A stretch of 64,000 bases of DNA from a virus, in the IMG/VR virus record IMGVR_UViG_3300012153_000001, positions 1 to 64,000 of that record. One strand, 5' to 3'. The position numbers and the translations under genes were made by a program. The stretch's first letter is position 1. Every line of letters starts with the position of its first letter. The notes under the pieces are model-generated. The model ran no database searches. It was not told the DNA's origin and was given only the letters and a program-made list of their open reading frames with translations. This document shows, in pieces, positions 9,933-30,444 of this stretch.

Positions 9933-9974
9933 AAAACCCTCCAACAACAAGATTAAAAAAAAGATTTCAGAACG

Positions 9975-13109: not shown

Positions 13110-14561
13110 ATGGCGAAACTTAACGTGGTAATTCCGGCAGTAGAGGTAACGGTGGATGGCGTGACTTATCGCAAGGTTGACCGCAAGGCGCAAGCGGGTG
13201 ATATCGTTAAGGCGCTAAATAATGGTGACGACATCGATATGGGCGCATTCTACGCGGTGTACGTAAGCTCAGACCGTGAACTCGTGTTTGCGGATGATAA
13301 CGGTGATGAGAGAGCGTATCAACTCAGAGAGAACTCGGATAAGTACGAAGTCTACGCGCCAATCTCCGAACCAGCCGCGGACACTATCACGTTCGAAGGC
13401 GCAACATGGCGCAAAGTCGACCGCGATGTCCGCGAAGGCGATGCGATTAAGTTTACGGGTAAGGGACGCCGCAGCTACTTGACTGGTGCGGAGCTGTACG
13501 TTGTTGACCGCGTAGATTCGTGCGACGATCCGCAAATTACGGATGACGACGGAGATGATTACGACGCGGGCAGCGCTGATTACGAAGTCTACGAGAAGGT
13601 TGCGGAAGAGAAGACGCAAGTCACTACACCTCAGTATCGCGAGGTTAAGCGGAAAGCTGACGTAGGTGAGCGGATTAAGATCGTCGATAGGCTCGTATGG
13701 GAGACACGTTATGCGAACGGAGATACCTTCGTTGTAGCAGAGGACGCGGCTGGTGGTGACGTCGTTATTAGAACGGAGAATTTCCCGAGAGTATGCGTAG
13801 TTTATTCCGAATACGTCGTACTCGAACCGGTAACCGCGGAGCCTGCGAAGAAAGCGGAGCCAGAACGCCTGGCCGTCGGAGATTATGCGCGGGTTGTTGA
13901 CGGAGAGAAAATAAACTCGGGAGCTCGCGTTGGAGACATCGTTGAGATACTCGTAGATGATAAGAGCACGGTGCCGTATAAAGTACGTACAATTAGCGGC
14001 TATAGGGTCGGAGACGAAAACTGGGCGCTTCCTTCCGCATTTGTCCGCGCAACAGACGAAGAGGTGGCGGCCGCTAAAGATCCGCGCAGTAAATTCGAGA
14101 TCGGAGACTACGTAAAGGTTGCGGTCGAATACTGCGAGCATAAGGTAGGCGACGTATTGAAGATTACGAACACAGCCAGCAGACACGATTTCTACGTAAC
14201 TAACGTGGCTACTAATCGTCTTGGGTGCATCGACGCAGACAAACTCGTTAAACTCACCGCAGCCGAAATCGCGGAGATCGAACGCAAGCAAGCGGAAGAA
14301 GCCGCTAAACGCGCTGAGGAAGCCCGCTGGAACGCGATCGGCCGTAAGGTGAACGAGTATAAACGCGGAGATTTGGTAAAGGTACTCGGAACTCTCGGCG
14401 GAGAAACCGAAGTAGGCGACATCGTGGAGGTATACGAAGGAGACGGAACTGACTCACCGATGATTTACGGTAATGATGGTTCAACATACTACGCCACGGT
14501 TGAGCTAATCGTTCCGGTAGAGCAACGTTTCGACCGCGTAGAGGAGGTGGACGCCGCATAA
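13110..14561 (+). CDS. Repeat protein, paralog 1 (three Y/W-R-K-V-D-R-K...GD-IK modules plus further xVGDxV repeats)
   Basis: ATG 13110 follows AAAGGGGA. Modules VTYRKVDRKAQAGDIVK, ATWRKVDRDVREGDAIK and PQYREVKRKADVGERIKIV...EYVVLEP. Confidence 0.7.
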   Translation: MAKLNVVIPAVEVTVDGVTYRKVDRKAQAGDIVKALNNGDDIDMGAFYAVYVSSDRELVFADDNGDERAYQLRENSDKYEVYAPISEPAADTITFEGATWRKVDRDVREGDAIKFTGKGRRSYLTGAELYVVDRVDSCDDPQITDDDGDDYDAGSADYEVYEKVAEEKTQVTTPQYREVKRKADVGERIKIVDRLVWETRYANGDTFVVAEDAAGGDVVIRTENFPRVCVVYSEYVVLEPVTAEPAKKAEPERLAVGDYARVVDGEKINSGARVGDIVEILVDDKSTVPYKVRTISGYRVGDENWALPSAFVRATDEEVAAAKDPRSKFEIGDYVKVAVEYCEHKVGDVLKITNTASRHDFYVTNVATNRLGCIDADKLVKLTAAEIAEIERKQAEEAAKRAEEARWNAIGRKVNEYKRGDLVKVLGTLGGETEVGDIVEVYEGDGTDSPMIYGNDGSTYYATVELIVPVEQRFDRVEEVDAA

Positions 14562-14570
14562 GCGCTAACC

Positions 14571-16433
14571 GTGCGGACTACAACGAAAGGAGTGAGCGCT
14601 ATATCACCGAAACTAACGCTAAACTTACGGCCGCCAGCGGATGACGAAGCGGCGGAACGGGTGGCAGACGCAGCTAAACGGAAGAAGGCGGCGCAGGAGA
14701 CGGACGAAGAGGCGATCGACCGCGTACTGCGGATGTCATTAACGGATAAGCAACGCGAGGCAATCGAAGGCTTACGGCAGGTATACGGATCGGGCGAAAC
14801 AGGCAATCGTCCGACTCTCCGTACCTCTGGCGGCCAAGTAACGAAAGAAGACGTAATCCGCGCGGCTGAACAACTGCAACGACAAAGGCAGACGGATCAG
14901 CGCGCGGAGAAAGTTGCGGAGACATTGCGGTCAAAGCCGGATAATTTCCACATCGTAACGGATGACGCGGAGTTACCTGCGTTCGTCGAGCGTATTCGCG
15001 AAGAGTGTCGGCGCCAAATGGCGGAGTGGCCGGATAGGTGGGCGATACTTGGCGTAAAATCGCTGACCGCGAATGACTTCGAGGGAACCGGAGTAGACAC
15101 GTACATTGACGTATCAATCGGATATTCCGTATGGCTTCCGTTACTGGACGAAGGGTACTACCTTCCGTATGGGCACGTTGACATGCGCGGAGAATCGGGC
15201 TTCGACTTCCTGGACGATATGAGCGCACATAAATCAACCGACCGCCAGCTCACGCGTTCAAAAGTTCTCGCGGCAATCACGCCTTATCTATCGCAACCAG
15301 CGCATGGCAAATCGTTTCATATGGGATCTGCGCGCTATGACTTACACGTTGCGATTAAAGACGGCTACGAGATTCACGGCTGCGTATGGGATTCGCTGGA
15401 CGCGATGAACTCGTTAAATGAGCACGAGGAGTACTTCGGTCTCAAACCGTTAACCGCTAAATACGGACGTTACTTCGGAATTGACGGTCCGGTCTATACG
15501 TTTGAAGACATGTTTGGAAACCGTTCGCCAGCTCCGTTCAGCATCGAACTCGTCGGAATCTACGCGATCAAGGACGTACTGTACGGTTGGCGCCTTACGG
15601 AATGGCAATTCGAACAGATGCGCGTTACGCCGTCCGCAGAGAAGCCGGGCAAGCTTCTCGAATGTTATGCGCAAATTGACTCGAAGCTTCCGGAGACAGA
15701 CGTATTCTTGGCGCGGTCCGGCTTCTGCGTTGATATTGACGGACTCGCCGCGTTAGAAACCGAGTTCGAACCGCTACTTGAGAAGGCTCGTGCTGACGTA
15801 TTCGAAGCGTACGAAATTGACGACGCGTTTGTACGTAAGATGGACCGCACGATCAACGCGGCTAAGGTTACGGACTGGATCGATAAGCAACGTAAGAGGA
15901 TCGCACGGAATGCGGAAGCTCAGGAGAAACAACTCGCGATAATCTCGGAATGTAAAGCCGCAGGGAAAACGCAGCTCAAGAAATATACGAACGCGGTCGA
16001 AAGGCTTGCGCAATTGAAGGCGGAGAATTTAGCGCCAGCCGACGAAGAGCACGCGCCACTTAACGTAACGGAGTTTTCGATAACGAACGGGAATCACCTT
16101 GCGTATCTGATTTACGATCACCTCGGAATACGCGACCGCACCGGACAGTTCAAGCGCGGCAAGAACCGCAGTACGGCTGCTGACGTCATGGAGGCGTATT
16201 ACGAAGAGGAAGAAGCGCTCAAGCCGTTGGCGACCGTGGCTGCGTACGAGAAGCTGCTAACAACGTATATCCAACCGATGTTAGGGAGCGCGGGCAAATC
16301 GTCCATTATCGAAGTGGATGGGCGCGTACACTCGGAGTTCAAAGCGGGAGGGACCGCAACAGGGCGGTACAGTTCGTCAGGATACAGCGGAAGACCGATC
16401 GATATATTACGCGAATTTGAAACGGAGGAATGA
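14571..16433 (+). CDS. Family-A DNA polymerase, N-terminal piece (3'-5' exo domain plus start of pol domain)
   Basis: Exo motifs NDFEGTG, YDLHV, YAIKD. Ends ...GRVHSEFKAGGTATGRYSSS+17 aa, right after the TGRLSS-equivalent motif. The start is uncertain (GTG 14571 has no SD; ATA 14601 follows AAAGGAG). Confidence 0.8.
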   Translation: MRTTTKGVSAISPKLTLNLRPPADDEAAERVADAAKRKKAAQETDEEAIDRVLRMSLTDKQREAIEGLRQVYGSGETGNRPTLRTSGGQVTKEDVIRAAEQLQRQRQTDQRAEKVAETLRSKPDNFHIVTDDAELPAFVERIREECRRQMAEWPDRWAILGVKSLTANDFEGTGVDTYIDVSIGYSVWLPLLDEGYYLPYGHVDMRGESGFDFLDDMSAHKSTDRQLTRSKVLAAITPYLSQPAHGKSFHMGSARYDLHVAIKDGYEIHGCVWDSLDAMNSLNEHEEYFGLKPLTAKYGRYFGIDGPVYTFEDMFGNRSPAPFSIELVGIYAIKDVLYGWRLTEWQFEQMRVTPSAEKPGKLLECYAQIDSKLPETDVFLARSGFCVDIDGLAALETEFEPLLEKARADVFEAYEIDDAFVRKMDRTINAAKVTDWIDKQRKRIARNAEAQEKQLAIISECKAAGKTQLKKYTNAVERLAQLKAENLAPADEEHAPLNVTEFSITNGNHLAYLIYDHLGIRDRTGQFKRGKNRSTAADVMEAYYEEEEALKPLATVAAYEKLLTTYIQPMLGSAGKSSIIEVDGRVHSEFKAGGTATGRYSSSGYSGRPIDILREFETEE

Positions 16434-16437
16434 GTAG

Positions 16438-16767
16438 ATGACTAAATATCTTTTGCCTCTCATTGACGGTGGTATCGTGAAAATTGAGACTGATTCGGAG
16501 TACTCGCCAGGCTGCGAGACGTGTGACTACGGAAGTTTATATATAAACGATTTCAACGTTCTATTGAGTACTGGAAATATATACGTCAGAGCAGAAAATA
16601 TGTACGAGTACGCATTGTCCGAGGGCTACTTAATGGAGCTCATTCTTCCGAATACAGACCTTATTAAAGGGATGACAGAGCGTGGGTTCTTTGAGTGGGT
16701 TGAGGAGAGCCTGCGAGGTAAGTTTGGAAGTCTAATCGATATTTGCGAGTTCAACGCTAATGCCTAA
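16438..16767 (+). CDS. Unknown 109-aa protein inserted within the split polA
   Basis: Strong SD ACGGAGGA 8 nt before the ATG. Visibly AT-richer than its flanks. No homing-endonuclease motif recognised. Confidence 0.7.
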   Translation: MTKYLLPLIDGGIVKIETDSEYSPGCETCDYGSLYINDFNVLLSTGNIYVRAENMYEYALSEGYLMELILPNTDLIKGMTERGFFEWVEESLRGKFGSLIDICEFNANA

Positions 16768-17848
16768 CATAACTGACGCTAATTACCACGCTATTGTCCG
16801 TAAGCTTATCGCAGACAACCGCAAGGTAAGACGCGGCCTCAACGCCCAGAATTTACCATCTAAAGGCGCAGGCAGCCGCGTCCGTAATCAATTCGTTCCT
16901 CGCGAAGGCTTCACGTTTGTCGGCGCCGACCTCGGGCAGATAGAGCCTCGAATAATGGCGCACATCATGTATACGAAATATAACGACAACTCTATGCGTC
17001 AAATCTTCGTAGACGGCGTCGACCTCTATACGACTATGGCGATGATGACGTTCGACTTGCCAGAAGAATACTGCGTCGACAAAGCGTACGATCCGACCGG
17101 CAAGTTCAAGCCGCGCGTAATGATGAAGACAGGCCAGCTCGCGGTGTCATACGATCAATCCGTTAAGTCTTTCGCGAAGAAGATGCAAGTTACCGACGAC
17201 GTTGCGCAGATGTTCTTCGAAAACTTCGACCAAACGTTTCCGTCGTTTAAAACGATGGTGGCCGATATTCGCGACTTCATGCGTCAGCACGGTTATGTAG
17301 AAACACTTTTCGGCCGCAAACGTCGCTTCCCGGATTATAAACGCGTAGCTGCGTCAGCATCGAAGAATGAGCAACGGTTGATCCGCTTGTACACTGAACG
17401 GAAATCACTCCGCCGCCTGACGCCGACCGATGCAGAACAACGAAGGATCACCGCACTGCAAGAGGAGATAGGCAAGCTCGCAGAGGATCGCGGTAATGTC
17501 GGCTACTGGGAACGTGCTGCCTTCAACGCGGTTATCCAAGGAACTGGCGCGGACATCCTCAAGCGCATTGGTATCCGTATGGCACAGATATGTCGAGAAC
17601 GCGGATGGGAGTTTAACGCGTCAATACATGATGAAGTTATCGTAAGCATTCCGGACGATCAAATGACGCCGGAAACAATCGCGCTTATTAACGAAGTGAT
17701 GACGAAGACTTCCGAGTTAAGCGTGCCGCTTACGACGGACATTGCGATACAAAAGCGCTGGATGATGGAGTATTCAGCGGACGAATGGGACTACGCGAAT
17801 AACCGGCCGTTGCCGGAGTTTGCGAATAAATACGGGGAGGCTGCGTAA
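16760..17848 (+). CDS. Family-A DNA polymerase, C-terminal piece (palm/fingers)
   Basis: GLNAQNLPSK (PNLQNIP equivalent), ADLGQIEPRIMAH (motif A), KTGQLAVSY (motif B), SIHDEV (motif C). The ATG overlaps the end of the inserted ORF. Confidence 0.8.
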   Translation: MPNITDANYHAIVRKLIADNRKVRRGLNAQNLPSKGAGSRVRNQFVPREGFTFVGADLGQIEPRIMAHIMYTKYNDNSMRQIFVDGVDLYTTMAMMTFDLPEEYCVDKAYDPTGKFKPRVMMKTGQLAVSYDQSVKSFAKKMQVTDDVAQMFFENFDQTFPSFKTMVADIRDFMRQHGYVETLFGRKRRFPDYKRVAASASKNEQRLIRLYTERKSLRRLTPTDAEQRRITALQEEIGKLAEDRGNVGYWERAAFNAVIQGTGADILKRIGIRMAQICRERGWEFNASIHDEVIVSIPDDQMTPETIALINEVMTKTSELSVPLTTDIAIQKRWMMEYSADEWDYANNRPLPEFANKYGEAA

Positions 17849-18748
17849 ATGGAACAGCGTAAATATACGAGTATTGTACGAATGGGACATCGCGATACTG
17901 TAGGAGTCGTTAAGGAAGGCGACTATATCACGGTATACGAAAAGTTGGACGGAGCTAACGCGTCGTTTTCGCTAAGAGATGACGGAGAAGTCCTCGCGTT
18001 CTCACGTAACACGCAGCTCTCTCCGGAAAATAACCTACGTGGATTCTACGAGTTTACTCGCGGTATTAATCCTTCCGCACTAATGCCAGACACTATTTAC
18101 TACGGAGAATGGCTCGTTAAGCACAAAGTCGATTACGGAGACAAAGCGGCAACGTTCTATCTGTTCGATATCTACAGCACTATCGACGAAGATTACGCGC
18201 CAACTGACGTTGTTATCTCCGAGGCCGCATGGTTGGGACTCGCAATTGCACCGATCCTATACGCAGGCCCTTACGTATCATTCGAACACCTGCAATCGCT
18301 GGTTGGGCGGTCTTCATACGCGGTAAACGCAGCAGGCGGCGAAGGCATCGTCGTCAAGAACGTTAATTTCCGGGATCAGTACGGTAAGCAAACGTTTATG
18401 AAGCTCGTTAGCGAAGAATTCCGCGAGATGCAGCCGCAGAAGGCTCCGCGTGATCCTAACGCTGTGGAAACGGTCGAGACGGCGTTCGTCAAAACGTACC
18501 TGACCGAGGCGCGCGTCGATAAGCTATTACGCAAACTCGTTGATGAGGCGATTATTCCGGAAGCGTTCGGACTAGAGGATATGGGCGTCATCCTGCGTGA
18601 GCTTGGCGGCCGCGTATACGATGACCTATTGAAAGAGGAGAGCGCGGACTTACCAGCGGACTTTGACGAGAAGGGATTGCGCAAGGCGATCGGAAGGGTA
18701 TTACCGGTACTTGTACGCGAAATTATTAACGGAGAGGTGGCTGCGTAA
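17849..18748 (+). CDS. ATP-dependent RNA ligase (Rnl2-like nucleotidyltransferase)
   Basis: Motif I YEKLDGAN, motif III YYGEW, motif IV EGIVVKN, motif V FMKLV. Confidence 0.6.
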   Translation: MEQRKYTSIVRMGHRDTVGVVKEGDYITVYEKLDGANASFSLRDDGEVLAFSRNTQLSPENNLRGFYEFTRGINPSALMPDTIYYGEWLVKHKVDYGDKAATFYLFDIYSTIDEDYAPTDVVISEAAWLGLAIAPILYAGPYVSFEHLQSLVGRSSYAVNAAGGEGIVVKNVNFRDQYGKQTFMKLVSEEFREMQPQKAPRDPNAVETVETAFVKTYLTEARVDKLLRKLVDEAIIPEAFGLEDMGVILRELGGRVYDDLLKEESADLPADFDEKGLRKAIGRVLPVLVREIINGEVAA

Positions 18749-19372
18749 ATGAACGAAATAGTAACGGTAATTGACATCGAAACAACCGGACTTGACCCGC
18801 TCACCGATCATATTACGGAAATCGCCGCCATCCGTGCGGAAGTTGGGTCGGGCAGTTACATCCGCGAGATCGGACGGTTCCAGACGTACGTTGCACTTCC
18901 GCTGGGTGTTAGGATTCCGGAGAAGATTACGGAGTTGACCGGAATTAAGGCGGAGGATTTGCGCGATGCTCCTTCGGAAATAAACGCTTGGACAATGTTA
19001 CAGCGACTGTCTCGGGGATCTCGATTAGTGGCGCATAATGCTCCGTTCGATCTCGCGTTTATTAGGCCGGTAATGCACCAAGGATTCGCCTGCACTCGCG
19101 CCATGTCCCGCCTAATTGATCCGGACGAGAACGCAAGCCTTGCGCCGACATGTGAGCGTTACGGAATCGCGCTTAACGGACATCACCGCGCTATGAATGA
19201 CGTGGAGGCTACGCTGCAGCTTTACGCAATCCTGCGGGAGAAAGCGGAAGTTAACGGAATCACATACCGCAATGTCGTCGTTGATAGCGCGGAACGGCCG
19301 CTGACGTATACGCCGCCTGGCGCGATTGTGCGTACGATTACGCGGAAACAACAAACTAAGGAGGCGGTTTAA
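18749..19372 (+). CDS. DnaQ-like DEDDh 3'-5' exonuclease
   Basis: VIDIETTGLDP, VAHNAPFDLAF, HRAMNDVEAT. Confidence 0.8.
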   Translation: MNEIVTVIDIETTGLDPLTDHITEIAAIRAEVGSGSYIREIGRFQTYVALPLGVRIPEKITELTGIKAEDLRDAPSEINAWTMLQRLSRGSRLVAHNAPFDLAFIRPVMHQGFACTRAMSRLIDPDENASLAPTCERYGIALNGHHRAMNDVEATLQLYAILREKAEVNGITYRNVVVDSAERPLTYTPPGAIVRTITRKQQTKEAV

Positions 19373-20422
19373 ATTACGGATAACCAACTAATCGCAAATA
19401 GAATCGCGGAGCAATTTACGGTATTCCTGAACGAGTGGCATTCCGCGCCAGAAGTGTACGACGACGCTCTCGACGCGCAGATTCACGGCTGGTATCAAAA
19501 CGTACTTACGGACAAATCACGCAAAGTATGGCCGCCGCGGAACATTCCGTACTTCTCGCCAAGCTCCTCCAACTCCGATGCACGCGGCCTCTACGAAAAG
19601 ATGCGCGGCGCTAAGCGTGAGTCATCCGACCGACCTGCGCATCAAGGACGTTGGGTCCGGATAGGGACGGCAATTGGCGATGTCATTCAGCGCGATATTC
19701 TGTTCGCGGAGAAACATTACGCACGCCATTACGGAGAGAATCCGCGCTTCACATTCGACCGTAACGAACGCGGCGAGCCGGTATTCGAGGACTTCGCTAA
19801 ACGCGGCCATATCGTTAATCACGGCGGCCAGACATTCGCGTTATATGGAACATGCGACGGAATCATGCAAGTTTACGTACCGGAGCTCGGCCGGACGGTG
19901 CGCGTCGGCCTCGAAATTAAATCGAAGCAAGGAACGTACTCCGCGACATCCGGATATTCCACGAGGAATGGCGCGAAGGAAGACCACGTTAAGCAATGCG
20001 TCTGCTACTCGATTATGTATGACGTTGACTTCTACGTAATCCTCTACGTTAACGCGAGTAAGAAGGCGTGGGCGATGCCTGACGTGGATATCGAAAAGTA
20101 TCCGGACATTGCGGCGTTCGGCCTGCATATTACGGATGCGATGCGCGGTGAAATGCTTGACCACTTCGCCGAAATCGTTGACGCTGCGAATAAAGGCGAG
20201 CCGCCTGCGCTGGATCTCGATAAGTGGTTATTCCTAGACTTCAAGCGGACGGTATCCTTGTCACTTTCGGAAGACGAGGTGGAAGCGTTAAGGCGCAAAG
20301 TAGCCGCGATTATGAGATCGAACCTGCCGGACTGGAAGAAGCGCGGGCCGGCGGAGGCGTTAGCGGATATTGAGCGGATTAGGGAGGAAGAGGCGGAGAG
20401 CCAAACGAAGGAGGCTGCGTAA
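19373..20422 (+). CDS. PD-(D/E)XK (YqaJ/lambda-Exo-like) nuclease
   Basis: CDGIM...VGLEIKSK motif. The first canonical start, GTG 19454, lacks an SD. The frame is open from 19373, where ATT lies 8 nt after AAGGAGG. Confidence 0.6.
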   Translation: MTDNQLIANRIAEQFTVFLNEWHSAPEVYDDALDAQIHGWYQNVLTDKSRKVWPPRNIPYFSPSSSNSDARGLYEKMRGAKRESSDRPAHQGRWVRIGTAIGDVIQRDILFAEKHYARHYGENPRFTFDRNERGEPVFEDFAKRGHIVNHGGQTFALYGTCDGIMQVYVPELGRTVRVGLEIKSKQGTYSATSGYSTRNGAKEDHVKQCVCYSIMYDVDFYVILYVNASKKAWAMPDVDIEKYPDIAAFGLHITDAMRGEMLDHFAEIVDAANKGEPPALDLDKWLFLDFKRTVSLSLSEDEVEALRRKVAAIMRSNLPDWKKRGPAEALADIERIREEEAESQTKEAA

Positions 20423-20424
20423 TT

Positions 20425-20637
20425 ATGAACGTACTCAAACGCATACTTAACGGAATTGCATATGTAGGTGTGACCGCCGCTACTCTATACGGCTTGATGC
20501 TGTGGATTATCCTGCTCGCGAATAGTGGGAATACGTGGCTAACTCGGATTGGATTTGCGTTAATCATTCTCGCGCTATTTATCCAGGGATACACGTCAGG
20601 AGGCGATAACAATAGCGAAGCCAAAAGCGCAGACTAA
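20425..20637 (+). CDS. Small two-TM membrane protein
   Basis: SD AAGGAGG. Hydrophobic YVGVTAATLYGLMLWIILL and IGFALIILALFI. Confidence 0.65.
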   Translation: MNVLKRILNGIAYVGVTAATLYGLMLWIILLANSGNTWLTRIGFALIILALFIQGYTSGGDNNSEAKSAD

Positions 20638-21148
20638 ACGTTACGCCGGACTCGACCTTTCGTTAACTTCGCCAGGCTTTGCGGTTGTGGACGTGAAGAA
20701 TCGCGTCCCTAAGTTAGTCGCCACATCCATCGTTAAAACTGACGCAGGCGAGGCGCGCCCGTTACGCTACGAAGTCATCGAAGCTCACGCGTTATTATTC
20801 TTCCGCGAACATAAGCCTGATTCCGAAATCATTCGTGAGATATGGCCGCCAGCGCGTAACTACGAACAGAACGATAAGGTTCATGGAGCATGGTCGGCGG
20901 TTGATCGCGCACTATCGCGGCTTGGCTACGAGGTTGCGGAGAATCTGACACCACCTAACGTTAAGAAACTCGTAACAGGAAACGGTCGCGCTGAGAAACC
21001 GCAAGTTGCGGAAAGCGTGCGGAAGATACTACGGCTCGGCCCTGATTACAAGTTCGCGTCCGGCTACGATGACTCGGATGCTGCAGCGGTAATTCTGGCG
21101 TACCTTATCCGCGAGAACTTAATTGATACGGAAGTGGCCGCGGCATGA
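20612..21148 (+). CDS. RuvC-like Holliday junction resolvase
   Basis: YAGLDLSLTSPGFAVV, VTGNGRAEKPQV, DDSDAAAVILAY. The first motif lies upstream of canonical GTG 20687. ATA 20612 sits 8 nt after AGGAGG. Confidence 0.7.
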   Translation: MAKPKAQTKRYAGLDLSLTSPGFAVVDVKNRVPKLVATSIVKTDAGEARPLRYEVIEAHALLFFREHKPDSEIIREIWPPARNYEQNDKVHGAWSAVDRALSRLGYEVAENLTPPNVKKLVTGNGRAEKPQVAESVRKILRLGPDYKFASGYDDSDAAAVILAYLIRENLIDTEVAAA

Positions 21149-21303
21149 GCGAACTAGCCGCACGCCTCGCCGAACACCAGCGCCAGGAAATCGCAGCCCT
21201 CGAACGGTCCGTCGCAGTATACCGAGGGCTTGCGGAGAAGTATGAACGTAGGCTCGCCGAAGCCCGCGCAATATACGAAAGGAGCGAGCGCGAAGAATGC
21301 TAG
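21145..21303 (+). CDS. Small helical protein (52 aa)
   Basis: The ATG overlaps the upstream stop (ATGA). Fills the gap up to nrdI. Confidence 0.45.
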   Translation: MSELAARLAEHQRQEIAALERSVAVYRGLAEKYERRLAEARAIYERSEREEC

Positions 21304-23739: not shown

Positions 23740-23764
23740 ATACGAGAGGAGACTGATATCTTAA

Positions 23765-24727
23765 ATGACGAACATTATCCGCGCTGTGAATTGGAACCGA
23801 CCTGACGACGACTACTCCGAGGATTTCCTCGACCAGAACTTTATGCAAATATGGCGCGAGCACGAAATCCCGCTTGATGACGATAAGATGGCGTGGCTTG
23901 CGCTGAGTGATACGGAGCGTGACGTGTATAAGAAGGTGCTTGGCGGCCTTACATTTCTAGATACGGAGCAAGGTTCCGAAGGGATGCCGCTTATTATGCA
24001 GCACGTCGAGAGCGCGCAGAAGAAGGCGGTCCTATCGTTCATGGGCATGATGGAGCATATCCACGCGAAGTCTTATAGCGCAATCTTCGCAACGCTCACC
24101 TCTACGGAAGAGTCCGACCGCGTATTCGAATGGACCGTAGCCAATCCGTTCCTACGGCGCAAGGGCGAAATCATTAGCGGATATTACCGTTCCATTACGT
24201 CGCCTGAGCGCTTATACATGGCGATGGTTGCGTCGGTATTCCTGGAATCCGCGCTGTTCTATTCCGGATTCTACTATCCGCTATTACTCGCAGGACGCGG
24301 CAAGATGACGGCCAGCGGCGAGATTATCGATTTGATCATGCGCGATGAGGCGGTGCACGGTCAGTACATTGGAACACTAGCACGTGAGGTGTACGCTGAT
24401 CTTCCGCAAGAGTCGCAGGAGGCGCTTGACCGCGAAGTCGCCGTATTGCTGCGCCGGCTTTACGATAATGAGGCGGGGTATACCGTTGATTTGTACGCGC
24501 CAATCGGACTTGAGGAGGACGTGCTGCGGTTCCTGCGTTACAACTTTAATCGTGCGCTTATGAATCTCGGACGGCCTACGCATTTTCCCGACGAAGATAT
24601 CAATCCGATCGTACTCAACGGGATTAATACCGCGACGAAGATACACGATTTCTTCTCGAAGAAAGGTAACGGATATCAGAAGGCGGTCAATATCGTACCG
24701 CTTACGGATGCTGATTTCGCGGTATAG
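23765..24727 (+). CDS. nrdF: Class Ib ribonucleotide reductase beta subunit
   Basis: 320 aa. Di-metal ligand motifs EHIHAKSY and RDEAVHG. Confidence 0.9.
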   Translation: MTNIIRAVNWNRPDDDYSEDFLDQNFMQIWREHEIPLDDDKMAWLALSDTERDVYKKVLGGLTFLDTEQGSEGMPLIMQHVESAQKKAVLSFMGMMEHIHAKSYSAIFATLTSTEESDRVFEWTVANPFLRRKGEIISGYYRSITSPERLYMAMVASVFLESALFYSGFYYPLLLAGRGKMTASGEIIDLIMRDEAVHGQYIGTLAREVYADLPQESQEALDREVAVLLRRLYDNEAGYTVDLYAPIGLEEDVLRFLRYNFNRALMNLGRPTHFPDEDINPIVLNGINTATKIHDFFSKKGNGYQKAVNIVPLTDADFAV

Positions 24728-24737
24728 AACGGACACT

Positions 24738-24772
24738 AACGGAGGGCCTACGGGCTGCTCCGTTATTTTTTT
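24738..24772 (+). terminator. Rho-independent terminator
   Basis: AACGGAGGGCC-TAC-GGGCTGCTCCGTT followed by ATTTTTTT. Confidence 0.7.
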
Positions 24773-24779
24773 ATCTGCA

Positions 24780-24816
24780 ATGTCCCAATCTGCTCAATTC
24801 GTGTCCTTATATAGTA
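24780..24816 (+). promoter_or_regulatory. Copy 3 of the 36-bp element
   Basis: ATGTCCCAATCTGCTCAATTCGTGTCCTTATATAGT lies directly after a terminator and upstream of paralog 2. Confidence 0.6.
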
Positions 24817-24857
24817 TGTAAGACGGAAACACACTCAAACGAAACGGAGATGATACG

Positions 24858-25736
24858 ATGTCAAACGTTAATCAAACGTATCGAGAAGTCCAACGCAAAG
24901 CCAACGCAGGTGAGCGCATCAAGATCGTAGCCGCCGCGGTCACTGGCGGTAGTTACCACAACGGTGACGAGCTCGTAGTTAGTGCCGTCCAGCCGTCTGG
25001 AGTACTCGCGACACTTGCGGACGGATATCGCGCAGGTATCTGGCACCGCGAATACGTAGTCCTCGAACCTATCGTAGCTCCCGCGCCATCAAACGTTAAC
25101 CTCCCGGACCTCTTCGCACAATTCATCCGGGACAATGCGCCGGCCGTACGCAGCTACTTGGCGGAGGTTGATCCGGTTGATAGCGCGGAGATCAACGAAC
25201 CGGCCCCGCTGATACGCGCCAAGGTTATCGAAATGGCTCGCGAAAGGGTTACGGAGTTGGAGCGGCTCGGTTCTGATCCTAACGCGGAATTAGCGCAAGG
25301 TCCGTTCAAAACGAAGTTCTATAACGTAGAATTTCACGTTAACCGCGATAAACGGACAGTTACCGCATTAGTGCGTATGGGGCGGAGACGGAGCGGAGAT
25401 AAACCAGCCGCAGTAGGCATCGCTAAGGCCGCGCCCGACGACGTATTTAACGCAGACATCGGCAAGGCAATCGCGGCTGAACGAGCGCTCGGTCTGACGC
25501 TGACGGATGCGTTTGTGAATGCGCCGAAGCCGGAGAAGGCGGTACCTGGCGTCGTTATCCGTAAGATAAACGGAGCCCATATCGGTACAACTCGCGTCAT
25601 TGAACGGACAATATTGGACGGTACTAGATACGAATTTACCAACGGGTATAACTCGGAGATTCGTAACTGCGCGATTATCGACGACACCGACGCAGATTAC
25701 ACGGAGTCGGCCGCAAAGGACGGTGAAGCCGCGTGA
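24858..25736 (+). CDS. Repeat protein, paralog 2
   Basis: QTYREVQRKANAGERIKIV...EYVVLEP module plus a C-terminal VEFHVNRDKRTVTALVR...APDDVFNADIGKAIA domain shared with 29206-30444. Confidence 0.75.
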   Translation: MSNVNQTYREVQRKANAGERIKIVAAAVTGGSYHNGDELVVSAVQPSGVLATLADGYRAGIWHREYVVLEPIVAPAPSNVNLPDLFAQFIRDNAPAVRSYLAEVDPVDSAEINEPAPLIRAKVIEMARERVTELERLGSDPNAELAQGPFKTKFYNVEFHVNRDKRTVTALVRMGRRRSGDKPAAVGIAKAAPDDVFNADIGKAIAAERALGLTLTDAFVNAPKPEKAVPGVVIRKINGAHIGTTRVIERTILDGTRYEFTNGYNSEIRNCAIIDDTDADYTESAAKDGEAA

Positions 25737-25894
25737 CCAAAGACGAACTCATTATCGCACTCACAAAGCTAGATGCGCCAGGCAACGCGCAAATCCTCGT
25801 ATGGAGTGAAGACGGCGAGAGACTTACGCTTAACAACGAAGCTCGCGCAGTCTATGACGGAAAGTATGTTGTAATCGAGGAGGTGGGCGCGTGA
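25733..25894 (+). CDS. Small protein (53 aa), tandem paralog a
   Basis: GTGA overlap start. MTKDELIIALTKL... resembles the next ORF. Confidence 0.45.
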   Translation: MTKDELIIALTKLDAPGNAQILVWSEDGERLTLNNEARAVYDGKYVVIEEVGA

Positions 25895-26040
25895 CTAAGG
25901 CGGAATTAATCGAACTTATCGAACGCTTTCCGGATGACGCGGAAGTTTGCGTAAGAGATGTTGACGGAGACTCTCACCGAAATGTGTACGCGGTAATGTC
26001 CGGAGATAGAGTAGCGATTTGCTACGAATATGACCGCTAA
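25891..26040 (+). CDS. Small protein (49 aa), tandem paralog b
   Basis: SD GAGGAGG, GTGA overlap. MTKAELIELIERF... Confidence 0.5.
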   Translation: MTKAELIELIERFPDDAEVCVRDVDGDSHRNVYAVMSGDRVAICYEYDR

Positions 26041-26054
26041 AGGAGGGCGCAACT

Positions 26055-26201
26055 ATGGCGTATAAACTTGAACGCACCCCGACCGGATTCACCATAAGAA
26101 CCGCGCCAGCCGATCGTATCGAACGCGAACAGGCTGCGCGTGATTGGGCGGCGATTGCGCTAGTGGTTGCGGGATTGGTCGCGGTGTGGGCGCTCGTGTG
26201 A
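26055..26201 (+). CDS. Small membrane-anchored protein (48 aa)
   Basis: SD AAAGGAGGG. C-terminal TM WAAIALVVAGLVAVWALV. Confidence 0.5.
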   Translation: MAYKLERTPTGFTIRTAPADRIEREQAARDWAAIALVVAGLVAVWALV

Positions 26202-26228
26202 AACCTAATTTAACGAAGGAGTGATCGT

Positions 26229-26381
26229 ATGGAAGAAACGGTAACTATCGCAAAGTCGGAGTATGAACGCTTGGTACGAGATAGCGAATTTCTCGGCGCG
26301 CTAGAAGCATGCGGCGTAGACAATTGGGGCGGGTATAGTGACGCGTGGGATTTGATGGACGAAGAGGAGGACGCCGAGTGA
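26229..26381 (+). CDS. Small acidic protein (50 aa)
   Basis: SD GAAGGAG. Ends in a GTGA overlap with dut. Confidence 0.5.
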   Translation: MEETVTIAKSEYERLVRDSEFLGALEACGVDNWGGYSDAWDLMDEEEDAE

Positions 26382-26947
26382 ACGCAATCAACGTAAAATT
26401 CAAGCGCCTGCATCCGGACGCTAAGATTCCGCAGTATGCAACGGAAATGGCCGCCGGCTTCGATTTGGTGGCGGTAGAAGACGTAATCATCGCGCCGGGC
26501 GAAACTGCGAAGGTTCCGTTAGGATTCGCGGTGCAGATTCCGGCGGGCTACGAAATACAAATCCGGCCGCGTTCGGGAGTTTCCGCTAAGACGAAGCTTC
26601 GCGTAGCTAACTCGCCGGGTACGATCGATGCGGATTATCGCGGAGAGGTTGCGGTGCTTATCGATAACATTGCGCCAGTATGGGATGCGGCCGCTGGTTA
26701 TGCGTTAGATATCGAAGGTAAACCGACACATTCGCCTGTTCGCGGATTTCTTCCGGAAGGTACGTACATCATCCGCAAAGGTGATCGCATCGCTCAAGGC
26801 GTACTCGCCGCAGTATCCCGTGCATCCTTCGAAGATGTCGCGGAGGTTGACGATACGGAGCGCGGAAATGGCGGCTTCGGCTCGACCGGAACTCACGTAC
26901 ACAACGTAACTATTACGCCGCTGAATCGGAGTGTGAACGCAATTTGA
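26378..26947 (+). CDS. dut: dUTP diphosphatase
   Basis: AAGFDL, IRPRSG, NSPGTIDADYRGEV, GDRIAQ, RGNGGFGSTG. GTG 26378 follows GAGGAGG (the track ORF starts at 26345). Confidence 0.85.
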   Translation: MNAINVKFKRLHPDAKIPQYATEMAAGFDLVAVEDVIIAPGETAKVPLGFAVQIPAGYEIQIRPRSGVSAKTKLRVANSPGTIDADYRGEVAVLIDNIAPVWDAAAGYALDIEGKPTHSPVRGFLPEGTYIIRKGDRIAQGVLAAVSRASFEDVAEVDDTERGNGGFGSTGTHVHNVTITPLNRSVNAI

Positions 26948-27040
26948 TCAAACGCTATACCTACGCAATCATCACCGCTTACTGTATGACGGTTTGGGTC
27001 GGACTCGTAGTCCGGACGATATTACGATAGGAGGTCGCAC

Positions 27041-27262
27041 ATGATCGTAATCAGCGTTTACCTCTCGCTAGGTATGTTAATCGCAATGGCATTCGCTAAG
27101 TGGGGCGTGATTGACCCGGATGACGAAGGAATGCGCGAACTAGAAAGATCGCCACAAATGCAGCGCATGTTCTTGATTATACTCGCGCTATTATGGTTGC
27201 CACTTATATTGATCGGCGGAATCCAAGCGAAAATTACACGTAAGGGAGATGACGCGGATTGA
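27041..27262 (+). CDS. Small membrane protein
   Basis: SD TAGGAGG. Two hydrophobic segments. Confidence 0.6.
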   Translation: MIVISVYLSLGMLIAMAFAKWGVIDPDDEGMRELERSPQMQRMFLIILALLWLPLILIGGIQAKITRKGDDAD

Positions 27263-28053
27263 ACGTTAAGCTAATCGCACATACGCAACTATCCGAAGAG
27301 TTTAGGAATGCGCTATGGGACAGAGAGGACGCGGATGTAGACGTAAATGACCGCGCAGCCATCGCATTAACCGCAATCCGCACGTGTTACTCACCGCTCA
27401 AGCCTACGGAGATCGTCGCGCAAGAAGGCGAAAAGTACTTCGGAAACGCGGCGTCAGATGGCGCAGGAGGTACGGAAGCCGATCGATTGTTCCGCCATAT
27501 TACCGGATCAGGTCATACGTCAACTCTCGAACATATCACGTACACATTCGCGGTCGAAGACGTGAGCCGCGCACTCCTGGCGCAACTCACGCGTCACCGT
27601 CATCTATCGTTCAGCGTGCAGTCACAGCGCTATGTCCGTATGGGAAGCGCGGATAAGATTGGCGGATTCGATTACGTGACGCCTCCGAAAGTGGGGACGC
27701 AGGATGTTCCCGGAACAGATCGCTACGATGGTACTCGAACTCCATATCGCGGAGATCCGCTCAAGGCATACGAAGTGTTTGGGGAGTTTATGGCGGAAGC
27801 ACAACGAACATATGACCAACTTCGCGAAGCCGGAGTCCCGGCGGAAGACGCGCGCATGGTCCTACCGAATGCCGCCGCGTGTAATCTCGTAATGACCGGA
27901 AACTTGCGTACGTTCCTCGACTTTTACGCGAAGAGACGGCCGGGACGTGGTGCTCAGTGGGAGATTGCGGATTTGGCGGTAAGGCTGCGCGACGAGATCA
28001 TAAAGGTTGATCCGTGGTTGGCTCCATATTTTGATACGAAGGAGAGTGCGTAA
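27259..28053 (+). CDS. thyX: Flavin-dependent thymidylate synthase
   Basis: ThyX signature RHRHLSFSVQSQRY. Confidence 0.85.
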   Translation: MNVKLIAHTQLSEEFRNALWDREDADVDVNDRAAIALTAIRTCYSPLKPTEIVAQEGEKYFGNAASDGAGGTEADRLFRHITGSGHTSTLEHITYTFAVEDVSRALLAQLTRHRHLSFSVQSQRYVRMGSADKIGGFDYVTPPKVGTQDVPGTDRYDGTRTPYRGDPLKAYEVFGEFMAEAQRTYDQLREAGVPAEDARMVLPNAAACNLVMTGNLRTFLDFYAKRRPGRGAQWEIADLAVRLRDEIIKVDPWLAPYFDTKESA

Positions 28054-28263
28054 ATGAGCGAAGTTAACGTCTCATGGAATTATCACGATATTAATACGAC
28101 CTGTGACCGTCTTGAGAAAGACGCGGATGCTTGCGTACTTTATATCAAAGGCGATCCGGAGTATAAGGAGCATATCGGACTAAGCGCGGCGCAGGCGGAG
28201 ACTCTTATAGTAGACATCCGCAACATGCTCGATAAACTCTACGCAAAGGAGGACGCAGAATGA
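28054..28263 (+). CDS. Hypothetical protein
   Basis: SD AAGGAGAG before the ATG. Confidence 0.6.
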   Translation: MSEVNVSWNYHDINTTCDRLEKDADACVLYIKGDPEYKEHIGLSAAQAETLIVDIRNMLDKLYAKEDAE

Positions 28264-28427
28264 GACTTATCGGACAGTTAATCGCCGGCCTAATCACGCA
28301 GCAACTCGCATTACACATGTTTGACGCAAGCCCGGCCGAAGGTTATATCGCGTATATTCTCGGATGGATTCTCGCGAAACAAATCATAGCGGAGGTGACC
28401 GCAGATGAGCGAAGCCAAAACGGATGA
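28260..28427 (+). CDS. Small membrane protein (55 aa)
   Basis: ATGA overlap start. Hydrophobic. Below the track cutoff. Confidence 0.4.
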   Translation: MRLIGQLIAGLITQQLALHMFDASPAEGYIAYILGWILAKQIIAEVTADERSQNG

Positions 28428-28692
28428 TCCGCGCCAACTAGCCGAAGTCCTCCCGTTCGTACCGCGTCCCACTCCGGAATCAATCGCGCAGATGGAACTC
28501 GTTTCCCTACTCGAACGCTACGTAGACTTAGCGCGGTCAGGCGAAGTCACCGGTGTAATCATCGCGGCCAAGACGGAGAATGACGTGTTAACCGGCGAAA
28601 TCATGGCGGAAAGCGCCGGCGTCAATCCACGCGAAGCAACGTTATTGATCGAGGAATTACGCATAGTTAACTTTTACGAATACGACGTTTAA
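28405..28692 (+). CDS. Hypothetical protein
   Basis: SD GCGGAGGTG before the ATG. Confidence 0.6.
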   Translation: MSEAKTDDPRQLAEVLPFVPRPTPESIAQMELVSLLERYVDLARSGEVTGVIIAAKTENDVLTGEIMAESAGVNPREATLLIEELRIVNFYEYDV

Positions 28693-28711
28693 CAACGAAG
28701 GAGGCGGATTA

Positions 28712-29185
28712 ATCTCGCTAAGTATAATCGCGCAAATCATCGTAGCTTTATCCGTAGGACTAAGCGCAGTTAACGGAGTCCCACCGAACGAACCGATGCA
28801 ACCACCCGCAGTCTCTTCGCAGGTAACAGGCAAACTTGCGAAAGAACAGGCGGAGATTAAGGCGCATGACGACGCGTGGCAAACGTACGAAGCGACTGCT
28901 TATACGGCGTTTTGCTCCGAAGGATGTACGGGAATCACCGCGACCGGCCTCGACGTCAGCGAAACGACTACGTATAAAGGGCGCACGGTTATCGCAACTG
29001 ATCCGAAGGAGATCCCGCTTGGCACGCGGATAACAATACGGACTGCTGACGGTGGGGAAATCGCAGGCATATCGCAAGACCGCGGATCGGCGATTAAAGG
29101 CCGCAAGCTTGACGTATTAGTTGCGTCGGAAAAGGAAGCGCGCCAGTTCGGACGCCAGAAAGTACGCGTTAAAATCGAAAACTAA
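28712..29185 (+). CDS. Secreted or anchored 3D-domain (RlpA/YocH-like) cell-wall protein
   Basis: AYTAFCSEGCTGITATG...IATDPKEIPLGTRI...DRGSAIKGRKLDV. A signal/anchor peptide SLSIIAQIIVALSVGLSAV is encoded upstream of canonical ATG 28796. ATC 28712 lies 7 nt after GAAGGAGG. Confidence 0.65.
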   Translation: MSLSIIAQIIVALSVGLSAVNGVPPNEPMQPPAVSSQVTGKLAKEQAEIKAHDDAWQTYEATAYTAFCSEGCTGITATGLDVSETTTYKGRTVIATDPKEIPLGTRITIRTADGGEIAGISQDRGSAIKGRKLDVLVASEKEARQFGRQKVRVKIEN

Positions 29186-29205
29186 ACGATAAGGGAGCGG
29201 ATTAT

Positions 29206-30444
29206 ATGAACGCAAACATTACCGTATTGAAAGACGAAAGCCTCGGCGGAGTTGAGCGCGAGTACCACGAGGTTAAGCGGAAGGCGAGCGTTGGTGAACG
29301 TATTAAGATCGTTGACGCCTCTTCATTCAGCGATTATGGAAACGGAGATACGTTTATCGTGGAACGCGATGACTGTGACGGGGATATTTTCATTACGGAT
29401 AATGTCGGAGATGAGGAGGGTGTGTTTGATTACGAATACGTAACGCTCGAACCGTCCGATATCGTCCGCATCAACTCCGCCCGCTTCCGCATGGTCGATC
29501 GGAAAGCCGCGGTGGGCGAGCGCGTGATTATCGTAAATACTGTCGATTTAAACGGGGATGGCTACGAGAATGGTAATGTATTTGACGTAACGGAACTTTG
29601 GGAAGCGGGAGTTGACGTTGATCACAGCGTAACGCTCTATCATCGAGAATACCACGTACTCGAACCAGTAAAAAGCACGCCAATCTCCGAACCTCTCTCC
29701 GCCAAGCCCGCGCCTGACCAAGCCGCCGAAATCATCGCGAAGTTATCGACGCGAGTAACTGCGCTTGAGGAACGTGTGGCGGCGTTGGAAACTGCGCCTA
29801 TTAACCCGCGCTTATCTGACGTAGGAGTTAGAGCGCAGGAAGCTACGGACGCATTCGCTAGAGCTACGAAAAGGACATCCGCCACAGTAGCGGAAGTTAC
29901 CGCTAACCTGGCGCAACGGGCGAAGGAAGCGCGCCAGAGAAAGCGCGATGACATCGTTAAGCGTGCGAAGGAGGACTTACACGCGCTGTCTATCGAAACT
30001 GGAAATTACGTTGTTAAGGATTCGCCCACATGTCGAGGTAATATATGTGAGGTGGAGTTCATTGTCAACCGAGATAAGCGTAAAGTTACCGCTATCCTGC
30101 GCGGAGTAAACTCTCGAAAAGTACGCGCCGTTGGTCGGGCGGTCTGCAATCCGGATGACGTGTTTAACGTACATCTAGGGCGCGCAATTTCGCTAAGAAA
30201 AGCGCTAAAACAACCGATTCCGGAGGAGTACGTTAACGCGCCGCAGCCTACGGAGGTTCGCGTTGGGGATGTCGTTAAGTGGACGTATAAATATGGCGGG
30301 GAGATTACGGAGGTTGTAACGATTACACGTATTGACGGTGATCAATACCGATTCTCAGACGGGTGCTGGGACGATAGAGATACGCTAACTGTGCTCGACG
30401 ACTCCCGTACAGACAGCGCAGAGCCGCGGAAGGAGGTGGCGTAA
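29206..30444 (+). CDS. Repeat protein, paralog 3
   Basis: Two modules (REYHEVKRKASVGERIKIV...YEYVTLEP; ARFRMVDRKAAVGERVIIV...EYHVLEP), a coiled-coil linker, and a C-terminal VEFIVNRDKRKVTAILR...NPDDVFNVHLGRAIS domain. Confidence 0.75.
   Translation: MNANITVLKDESLGGVEREYHEVKRKASVGERIKIVDASSFSDYGNGDTFIVERDDCDGDIFITDNVGDEEGVFDYEYVTLEPSDIVRINSARFRMVDRKAAVGERVIIVNTVDLNGDGYENGNVFDVTELWEAGVDVDHSVTLYHREYHVLEPVKSTPISEPLSAKPAPDQAAEIIAKLSTRVTALEERVAALETAPINPRLSDVGVRAQEATDAFARATKRTSATVAEVTANLAQRAKEARQRKRDDIVKRAKEDLHALSIETGNYVVKDSPTCRGNICEVEFIVNRDKRKVTAILRGVNSRKVRAVGRAVCNPDDVFNVHLGRAISLRKALKQPIPEEYVNAPQPTEVRVGDVVKWTYKYGGEITEVVTITRIDGDQYRFSDGCWDDRDTLTVLDDSRTDSAEPRKEVA

Follow-up and report, generated by a model that had tools for sequence, protein, structure and literature searches.

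Three phage genes built from a duplicated SH3-like beta-barrel, two of which carry a likely divergent relative of the Acb4 domain

Three dispersed genes, here named G1, G2 and G3, were analyzed computationally in a 64,000-nucleotide (nt) stretch of viral DNA (IMG/VR record IMGVR_UViG_3300012153_000001, positions 1 to 64,000), referred to below as the window. Their common building block is a single unclassified SH3-like beta-barrel, with duplications both inside genes and from one gene to another. In addition, G2 and G3 share a C-terminal domain that is likely a divergent relative of the Acb4 family of phage proteins, within a superfamily that joins Acb4 to the Rv2632c-like proteins and resembles double-stranded RNA-binding domains (dsRBDs) in fold. 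Judged from their sequences, the three products, which belong to a Paenibacillus phage and are presumably encoded by early genes, are probably counter-defence or host-takeover proteins. With moderate to low confidence, we read them as cytoplasmic host-interaction proteins, of which G2 and G3 would sequester a nucleotide signal. The genes are as follows, with lengths in amino acids (aa) and isoelectric points (pI) where relevant.

13110 to 14561, + strand: G1, an acidic protein of 483 aa (pI 4.6) with six small beta-barrels and one helix (open reading frame [ORF] table, AlphaFold2 [AF2] model)
24858 to 25736, + strand: G2, 292 aa; one module is followed by a linker, an Acb4-like domain and, at the C-terminus, a small beta domain (ORF table, BLASTP)
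29206 to 30444, + strand: G3, 412 aa; two modules are followed by a coiled-coil/helical linker, an Acb4-like domain and, at the C-terminus, a barrel (ORF table, AF2 model)

We are nearly certain of this architecture. The three ORFs are intact, and each is preceded by a GGAG-type Shine-Dalgarno site 7 to 10 nt 5' of its start. The ATG of G1 at position 13110 is backed by a 100%-identical database protein of 483 aa (P0121), which is encoded on a metagenomic contig of ~65 kb from run SRR6448731, and by the N-terminus MAKL, which is nearly invariant among 45 relatives. No signal peptide or membrane segment is apparent at the N-termini of G1, G2 and G3, as read from their sequences.

The module common to the three genes measures approximately 65 to 70 aa. 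It occurs in six copies (three in G1, one in G2 and two in G3), a count first proposed from inspection of the sequence alone, in what we call the first-pass annotation, and borne out by the ORF table, BLASTP, DNA repeats and a hidden Markov model (HMM).

13158 to 13367, + strand: G1 module a, residues 17-86, YRKVDRKAQAGD...YEVYAP subtype (HMM domain match; AF2 strands 18-84)
13398 to 13604, + strand: G1 module b, residues 97-165, WRKVDRDVREGD...YEVYEK subtype (HMM, AF2)
13623 to 13835, + strand: G1 module c, residues 172-242, YREVKRKAxVGERIKIV...EYVVLEP subtype, common to G2 and G3 (BLASTP, HMM, DNA repeats, AF2)
24867 to 25073, + strand: G2 module, residues 4-72 (BLASTP, HMM)
29251 to 29673, + strand: G3 modules a and b, residues 16-85 and 91-156 (BLASTP, HMM, AF2)

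Between genes, BLASTP aligns G1 with G3 at an E value of 6e-15 and G1 with G2 at 6e-12, while the modules of G2 and G3 align at 1e-10. The relationship is also visible in the DNA: a 55-nt repeat encoding YREVKRKAxVGERIKIV recurs at positions 13633, 24877, 29261 and 29483 with 62 to 82% identity, and the module ends are marked by a 25-nt repeat encoding EYVVLEP. No further copy was found when the six-frame translation of the window was searched with an HMM of the six copies (next best E value, 0.11). The module has an invariant R10 and E67, and five of the six copies are acidic, with a pI of 4.1 to 4.9.

In confident AF2 models of G1 (score of 86 for pLDDT, the predicted local distance difference test) and G3 (mean pLDDT of 83, built on a 45-sequence alignment), the module folds as an SH3-like small beta-barrel. 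The G1 model contains six such barrels (residues 12-84, 92-165, 175-241, 259-313, 334-381 and 422-468) and one helix (384-409). The G3 model begins with barrels at residues 16-89 and 92-154, continues with a helix at 169-195 and a long helix at 209-261, and ends with a beta sheet and helix (268-333, pLDDT >92) and a last small barrel (356-398). The second half of G1 had been described in the first-pass annotation as at least six shorter xVGDxVxV repeats of SH3/KOW-like character. The SH3/KOW-like character holds, whereas the number does not, as the segment consists of three barrels of ~60 aa with two GD strands each.

13866 to 14525, + strand: three shorter SH3-like barrels of G1, residues 253-316, 328-383 and 414-472, with helix 384-409 between the second and the third

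Used as single-sequence queries, these shorter barrels match the module profile in hhalign with a probability of 90 to 95% (P values of 1e-6 to 5e-8). They are thus homologous to the module, and G1 comprises six copies of one domain superfamily. Relatives of G1 carry Pfam matches to SH3_15 or SH3_2.

A Foldseek search of the G3 model against the PDB places tandem SH3-like, KOW and Tudor domains on top, with probabilities of approximately 0.97 to 0.99, E values of only ~1e-3 and 11 to 16% identity. Among such proteins, the translocation-signal domains of TraI (4L0J), the KOW6-7 domains of DSIF (5OHQ), kin17 (2CKK) and the MIB/SH3_15 repeats of Mind bomb show the same small five- or six-stranded barrel in tandem; however, they share no functional motif with the module, and the similarity is at the level of the fold only.

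In terms of sequence searches, the module has no place in any curated family, as the first-pass annotation had surmised. When 45 isolated modules were scanned with Pfam, no family was matched by more than three of them (best single E value, 0.0022), single modules matched SH3_13, SH3_15 or DUF1918 at E values of 0.06 to 0.09 only, and no significant match to the canonical SH3, SH3b, KOW or Tudor models was obtained. The Pfam scan of G1, G2 and G3 themselves gave only noise for the module. NCBIfam returned nothing for G1 or G2 and chance-level matches only for G3, a PADLOC search of the proteins returned nothing, and phmmer searches of G1 and G3 against PDB sequences gave nothing meaningful. 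The best match in a profile search of the module against the PDB was ribosomal protein uL14, at motif level (RxAxVGDxIK; E value, 0.05). All PHROGs matched (phrog_15694, 30892, 17910, 27882, 22171, 19251 and 38360) are of "unknown function". Likewise, ten long relatives scanned with Pfam revealed no informative domain fusion, their extra length consisting of more barrels. The module alone is not a new kind of protein, as the gene families are already present in databases as anonymous clusters and phage proteins with multiple SH3 domains are common.

The second shared element is the C-terminal half of G2 and G3. As the first-pass annotation had pointed out, both proteins carry a common domain here, followed by a small beta domain; the two halves align in BLASTP at an E value of 2e-28, and the HMM and AF2 analyses agree.

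25314 to 25520, + strand: Acb4/Rv2632c-like domain of G2, residues ~153-221, beta-beta-beta-alpha, pI 10.1 (PF08962 E value of 4.7e-4, below the cut-off; family HMM E value of 2e-27)
25548 to 25688, + strand: C-terminal small beta domain of G2, residues 231-277
29710 to 29988, + strand: helical linker of G3, helices 169-195 and 209-261 (AF2 secondary structure, conservation)
30007 to 30237, + strand: Acb4/Rv2632c-like domain of G3, residues 268-344, pI 9.7, pLDDT >92
30247 to 30408, + strand: C-terminal SH3-like barrel of G3, residues 348-401, followed by a conserved DDSR tail

The shared domain is a basic alpha-beta-beta-beta-alpha unit of dsRBD-like appearance (pI ~10), in contrast to the remainder of G2 and G3, which is acidic. 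In the G3 model it comprises strands 268-271, 278-288, 293-300 and 306-313 and helix 322-333, and the dsRBD-like core is present as three antiparallel strands with helix 209-261 on the N-terminal side and a C-terminal helix. No further domain of this type was detected elsewhere in the window by HMM search. Helix 209-261 terminates in a conserved RDxIVxRAKxD motif just before the beta sheet. The preceding helix, 169-195, reads IIAKLSTRVTALEERVAALE and follows a clear heptad pattern in which L180 and L187 are almost invariant among relatives; in the model, this conserved helix hints at oligomerization. At the other end, the DDSR tail is nearly invariant at the C-terminus of G3-type proteins.

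Acb4 is gp1.3 of phage SPO1, a 96-aa tetrameric protein and experimentally proven cyclic-dinucleotide sponge, which sequesters 3'3'-cyclic GMP-AMP (cGAMP) and related signals of the cyclic oligonucleotide-based antiphage signaling system (CBASS). It founds Pfam family PF13876, and its monomer is dsRBD-like in topology. Its ligand contacts are K36, F48, E49, V56, Y57, F62, N63, I66, T70 and K81, of which K36 reads the guanine edge, F48 stacks on the guanine, and F62, N63 and I66 form the adenine pocket (bioRxiv 10.1101/2024.12.30.630793).

The assignment to this superfamily is carried by comparisons between families. A word-index homologue search with SPO1 Acb4 yielded only five close relatives, and an exhaustive search of representative proteins was used instead. 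SPO1 Acb4 and four of its close relatives were turned into a profile, which retrieved 81 of 1.84 billion representative proteins at an E value of <1e-3; all 73 of those scanned with Pfam belong to PF13876 (best E value, 5.5e-29). The 81 proteins and the Acb4 seed sequences, 85 sequences in total, were combined into a PF13876-derived HMM. This model matches 59 G3-type proteins at an independent E value of <1e-3 (best full-sequence E value, 3.6e-10), and the 40 best matches listed all fall in the C-terminal domain of these proteins. In the reverse direction, the G3-type HMM recovers many PF13876 proteins, including SPO1 Acb4 itself. Aligning family with family, hhalign reports a probability of 92.4 to 92.6% and an E value of ~5e-7 over 52 to 53 columns, while controls with reversed sequences and unrelated profiles gave P values of 0.13 to 0.59. 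The consensus of the Acb4 family, VEFVKVGEKTTVCVLTLKNGFEVVGTSACVDPENFDEEIGREYALKDAL, can be aligned by eye with that of the G3-type domain, VEFVVNRDKRTVVALLRERESGKVRARGIAKCAPGDVFNAHIGKAIALRRAL.

Structure comparison and single-profile searches point the same way. In Foldseek, the G3 model matches Acb4 (9e4w) with a probability of 0.94 and Rv2632c (2fgg) with a probability of 0.82, both at a template modeling (TM) score of 0.48; this whole-chain search was swamped by the generic tandem SH3-like matches, and the C-terminal domain was not cleanly ranked in it. When all PDB sequences were searched with a profile of the domain, SPO1 Acb4 (9E4W) was the sole match, at a non-significant E value of 0.88, through a striking shared motif. 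Residue by residue, K36 of Acb4 corresponds to R in 119 of 122 G3-type domains, F62 and N63 are each retained in 121 of the 122, I66 is I or L in all of them, and G67 is G in all of them. The adenine-pocket motif F-N-x-x-I-G is nearly invariant in G3-type domains. E49 is aligned to R in G3.

The curated models give a more guarded picture. In Pfam, the best match of the domain is PF08962 (Rv2632c-like), to which G2 scores 20.5 bits (E value, 4.7e-4) and G3 14.5 bits (E value, 0.035), neither reaching the gathering score of 25 bits. PF08962 is matched by 14 of 20 diverse G3-type family members (best E value, 2e-5), and PF13876 by just 2 of 20 (best E value, 0.031). By these sequence thresholds, the domain is a member of neither family and is placed between the two. 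The match to the Rv2632c-like family (PF08962, DUF1876; structure 2FGG) is mechanistically uninformative. A literature search on this family, named after an actinobacterial protein, found no mention of it. Its members are small cellular proteins, in contrast to the multi-domain phage proteins G2 and G3. Nonetheless, the first-pass view that no known function could be assigned was too pessimistic for this domain, given its place in the Rv2632c/Acb4 superfamily.

Set beside SPO1 Acb4 (gp1.3; PF13876, Phage_gp49_66; 9E4W), the G2/G3 domain is likewise phage-encoded, has the same beta-beta-beta-alpha core after a helix, and shares the motifs K(T/R)TV, G(T/I)(S/A)xC and (D/E)xF(N/D)xxIG(R/K)xxALxxAL. 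It differs in its surroundings and charge, as Acb4 is a stand-alone tetramer of ~96 aa with a pI of 5, whereas the domain in the window is embedded in proteins of 290 to 410 aa with barrels (and, in G3, a coiled coil) and is basic in G3 (pI ~10). Other PF13876 members are likewise fused to extra domains. Among the 73 representatives of the PF13876 set (P0246-P0325), a Tad2-like domain is present in two and a crAss001_48 (PF21825, Sequestin) domain in two, and several others, e.g., P0259, P0263 and P0276, have long cysteine- and acid-rich C-terminal extensions.

At the nucleotide level, an 18-kb region of the window has no match among GenBank phages, so this phage is new at the DNA level. At the protein level, the family is widespread in Bacillota phages. 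With an E value cut-off of 1e-5, 316 relatives of the G3 type and 417 of the G1 type were found, all annotated as hypothetical and nearly all in Paenibacillus genomes or on contigs of 62 to 68 kb. Members of the G1 family have 3 to 10 barrels (mode of 6), and those of the G3 family have 2 to 4. The isolate Paenibacillus sp. JNUCC32 harbors a circular "plasmid" of 62,871 bp (NZ_CP062261.1, locus L005) that is syntenic with the window: a G1-like gene immediately precedes a PolA gene in two ORFs, a G3-like gene is flanked by a 3D-domain gene and a kinase gene, and a PhoH gene occupies the place of G2. The lineage may persist as an extrachromosomal phage-plasmid, or the JNUCC32 record may be an assembled phage genome. 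In Paenibacillus larvae phage Ash, the G3-like gene ASH_78 directly precedes the gene for deoxynucleoside monophosphate (dNMP) kinase and encodes two modules, the heptad helix and the Acb4-like domain (E value of 2e-10 against the PF13876-derived HMM). The same architecture is found in the unrelated Bacillus phages 268TH002 (gp41) and Mawwa (gp71), while the SPbeta and phi3T relatives retain the helix, the Acb4-like domain and the C-terminal barrel and differ in their N-terminus.

Compared to their positional orthologues in the JNUCC32 element, G1 and G3 are only 33% and 42% identical, whereas PolA is 73 to 81%, a 322-aa nuclease-like protein 63% and the dNMP kinase 62% identical. The genes are thus positionally fixed, yet evolve much faster than their neighbors. 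Fast divergence of this sort is typical of host-interaction genes.

Within the window, G1, G2 and G3 make up a single paralogous family with internal repeats, located in the region of replication and nucleotide metabolism, in agreement with the first-pass annotation. G1 lies directly upstream of a split PolA gene, G2 follows NrdI/NrdE/NrdF, and G3 is located between the 3D-domain gene and the dNMP kinase gene. Approximately 500 bp downstream of G2, a 50-aa ORF (26229 to 26381, + strand) matches PF25708, the RecBCD inhibitor gp5.9 of T7, at an E value of 3e-19.

G2 is the third copy in the phage and heads its own transcription unit, behind copy 3 of a promoter-like element. Its position as the first gene behind this copy had been noted before and is upheld, while the length then given to the element, 36 bp, is not, as it measures 51 nt.

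24750 to 24813, + strand: terminator-like hairpin (24750-24763) with a T run and copy 3 of the promoter-like element (24763-24813), upstream of G2

The three copies of the element (421-471, 9958-10008 and 24763-24813) each precede a gene block and follow the pattern ...ATGTCCCAA-N13-TTCGTGTCCTTATATA, with two (A/G)TGTCC half-sites. The element does not fit a scan for the sigma-70 consensus, so a phage sigma factor may recognize it or a regulator may bind it.

We tentatively propose that G2 and G3 act as sponges, a mechanism for the Acb4-like domain that we consider a realistic possibility short of probable. The domain would bind and sequester a nucleotide-derived small molecule, most likely a CBASS-type immune signal (a cyclic di- or oligonucleotide), in a pocket formed by the conserved K-R hairpin and the F-N-x-x-I-G loop-helix. 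The conserved heptad helix of G3 would gather several copies, as in the Acb4 tetramer, and the acidic barrels would serve as multivalent protein-binding or scaffold units. G1, with six barrels and no Acb4-like domain, would apply the same barrels to a host or phage protein target. The proposal draws on homology with Acb4, on conservation of the pocket motif, on the domain's charge and on the restriction of the family to phages. It is also made because Acb4 domains elsewhere are fused to other counter-defence domains and because the gp5.9-like RecBCD inhibitor gene lies so close to G2. Known sponge domains frequently occur in fusions, Acb4-Tad2 and Acb4-Sequestin being examples (bioRxiv 10.1101/2025.07.12.664507).

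Several observations weigh against this proposal. Half of the Acb4 ligand contacts are not conserved in the window-type domains: the guanine-stacking F48 is replaced by V, I or L, V56 by C or A, Y57 by A and T70 by I in G3-type domains, E49 is aligned to R in G3 itself, and K81 lies outside the aligned core. The F-N-x-x-I-G motif that is shared may be purely structural. The domains fall below the Pfam threshold for PF13876, which is not reported for G2 or G3 at an E value of ≤1 (gathering score, 27 bits), and the matches of G3 (E value, 0.0023) and G2 (E value, 0.017) to the PF13876-derived HMM in a small database are weak; their best Pfam match is the sub-threshold one to PF08962, a cellular family. 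Known sponges are short homo-oligomers, compared to the 290 to 410 aa observed here. Moreover, anti-defence genes are mostly accessory, while these genes are apparently part of the core of the lineage, fixed in position beside PolA and the dNMP kinase. Finally, G1 has no Acb4-like domain, so the sponge idea leaves the module, the heart of the finding, unexplained.

The readings that compete with a sponge are not mutually exclusive. The strongest of them, credible although we doubt it, is that the three proteins are host-takeover binders comparable to SPO1 gp38, gp39 and gp40: their barrels would bind and inhibit host targets, for instance RNA polymerase, the replisome or a protease, and the dsRBD-like domain would be another interaction surface. 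The barrels are acidic and multivalent and the genes diverge fast, as this reading would have it. Against BFVD, Foldseek matches the "host shutoff protein" of phage Goe2 with E values of 5e-8 for G3 and 9e-6 for G1, and this protein is 96.6% identical to SPO1 gp40. Module-like segments occur in gp40 and gp39, which have the ends YKVLVPYD/YHVLVPRD and the start ARVGDLIR, and the module profile aligns with them in hhalign at P values of 4.8e-4 (gp40) and 1e-3 (gp39), compared to 0.2 to 0.5 for controls. However, the hhalign probability is only 32% for gp40 and 21% for gp39, and an alignment of the family from five phages did not raise it above 32%. In Foldseek, gp40 is one of ~60 uncharacterized tandem-SH3 phage proteins returned.

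Beyond these scores, SPO1 gp38, gp39 and gp40 are also three related early proteins of a Bacillota phage and are synergistic in host shut-off (PMC6873191). In gp40, two N-terminal module-like barrels are followed by a helical linker, long and charged, and then by a beta domain at the C-terminus. The SPO1 proteins differ in having no Acb4-like domain and only marginal sequence similarity to the window module (P value of ~5e-4), and their genes lie side by side in a single operon within the terminal redundancy, in contrast to G1, G2 and G3, which are dispersed in the replication region. As the mechanism of gp38 to gp40 is itself not established, the analogy predicts little, and we retain it as a lead only.

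It is unlikely that the basic dsRBD-like domain instead binds structured RNA, the ribosome or DNA in the way of its cellular dsRBD relatives, thereby affecting translation, RNA processing or replication. The closest structural relatives of Acb4 are the dsRBDs of RNase III and ribosome hibernation factors, KOW and Tudor domains are among the Foldseek fold matches, and the module profile weakly resembles the RxAxVGD motif of uL14. Nevertheless, the sequence homology of the domain is to the Acb4 family and not to canonical dsRBDs, no match to dsrm or another RNA-binding Pfam family was found in G1 to G3 or in 20 family members, and most of each protein is acidic. From the alignment, the conserved residues would fall on the nucleotide pocket of Acb4 and not on the RNA-binding regions of dsRBDs. 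For the modules themselves, nucleic-acid binding had also been suggested by the first-pass annotation, and we reject it as unlikely on account of their low pI. A host protein or a small-molecule ligand is a plausible target.

Equally unlikely, in our estimate, is a role as an accessory or scaffold in replication or nucleotide supply, in which the split PolA would be the partner of G1, the dNMP kinase, ThyX or ribonucleotide reductase would be that of G3, and the Acb4-like domain could sense or bind ordinary (deoxy)nucleoside triphosphates. This would suit the strictly conserved position of the genes across the lineage: G1-like genes immediately precede PolA, G3-like genes immediately precede the dNMP kinase gene (in the window, the JNUCC32 element and phage Ash), and phi3T_182 comes after ThyA. 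It is at odds with a divergence far faster than that of the flanking enzymes, with the variable copy number and repeat number, with the PhoH gene that fills the G2 slot in the JNUCC32 element, and with the occurrence of the same architecture in other contexts in Bacillus phages. We know of no replisome component of this build.

Slightly less likely again is that the ~65-aa acidic barrel is itself a new ligand- or effector-sequestering, or counter-defence, unit. The idea arises because the barrel is repeatedly fused to the Acb4-like domain and known sponges tend to fuse with other sponges. By analogy, tandem barrels could replace homo-oligomerization, with pockets between the repeats. G1, G2 and G3 would then be a three-gene, multi-specific counter-defence set, and both the divergent clade of Acb4-like domains and, by extension, the Rv2632c-like proteins of cells would bind nucleotide signals with a new specificity.

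A final alternative, cell-wall binding by SH3b-type proteins as lysis or adsorption accessories, is highly improbable and was rejected. In its favor, wall-binding domains of endolysins often have an SH3-like fold, an amidase containing an SH3 domain ranks low among the Foldseek matches (5t1q; E value, 0.24), and G3 is preceded by a 3D-domain gene. The wall binder envisaged in the first-pass annotation is nevertheless contradicted by the lack of export signals (no signal peptide, membrane segment or catalytic domain in G1 to G3), the lack of matches to the SH3b Pfam families SH3_3, SH3_5 and SH3_8, and the location of the genes in the replication module instead of the lysis/structural module.

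Other features of the region were recorded alongside. The family A DNA polymerase downstream of G1 (14571 to 17848, + strand) is encoded in two ORFs, 14571-16433 and 16760-17848, divided by a 109-codon ORF (16438-16767) that has no Pfam match; no intein or homing-endonuclease signature was seen at the split. Directly 5' of G3, the 3D-domain protein (28796 to 29185, + strand; 129 aa; PF06725 E value, 6e-12) has no obvious signal peptide, and the pairing of a 3D-domain gene with a G3-like gene also occurs in the JNUCC32 element. The gp5.9-like ORF, a counter-defence gene, sits between G2 and the dUTPase gene and overlaps the longest ORF call of the latter (26345).

Many proteins in the window end in EAA, DAA or VAA (e.g., 14550-14561, 17837-17848, 25725-25736 and 30995-31006), and at several such junctions the next start codon lies within a few bases of the stop codon or overlaps it. 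The Shine-Dalgarno sequence of the downstream gene may therefore lie partly in these last codons (translational coupling). Two dispersed direct repeats were also observed: a 43-nt pair, 91% identical and 35.7 kb apart (2119-2161 and 37786-37828), and a 24-nt pair near the window ends (399-422 and 63284-63307; TCTCTTCGGAGG...), which may represent terminators or part of the genome ends.

The novelty here lies in placing the C-terminal domain of G2 and G3 within the Acb4/Rv2632c superfamily, as part of an unusual architecture of barrels, coiled coil, Acb4-like domain and barrel. The genes are carried by hundreds of Paenibacillus and Bacillus phages and prophages, in which they are always annotated as hypothetical, and the assignment provides this widespread family with a testable function and a possible handle on PF08962. 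If G2 and G3 prove to be working sponges, the Acb4 superfamily would reach well past PF13876, into a multi-domain coiled-coil clade, the orphan Rv2632c-like family would gain its first functional handle, and the attached barrels would become candidates for new counter-defence modules through guilt by fusion. If they are not sponges, they would still be conserved, fast-evolving and repeat-expanding early proteins encoded beside replication enzymes, and as such a good place to seek new mechanisms of host takeover in Bacillota phages.

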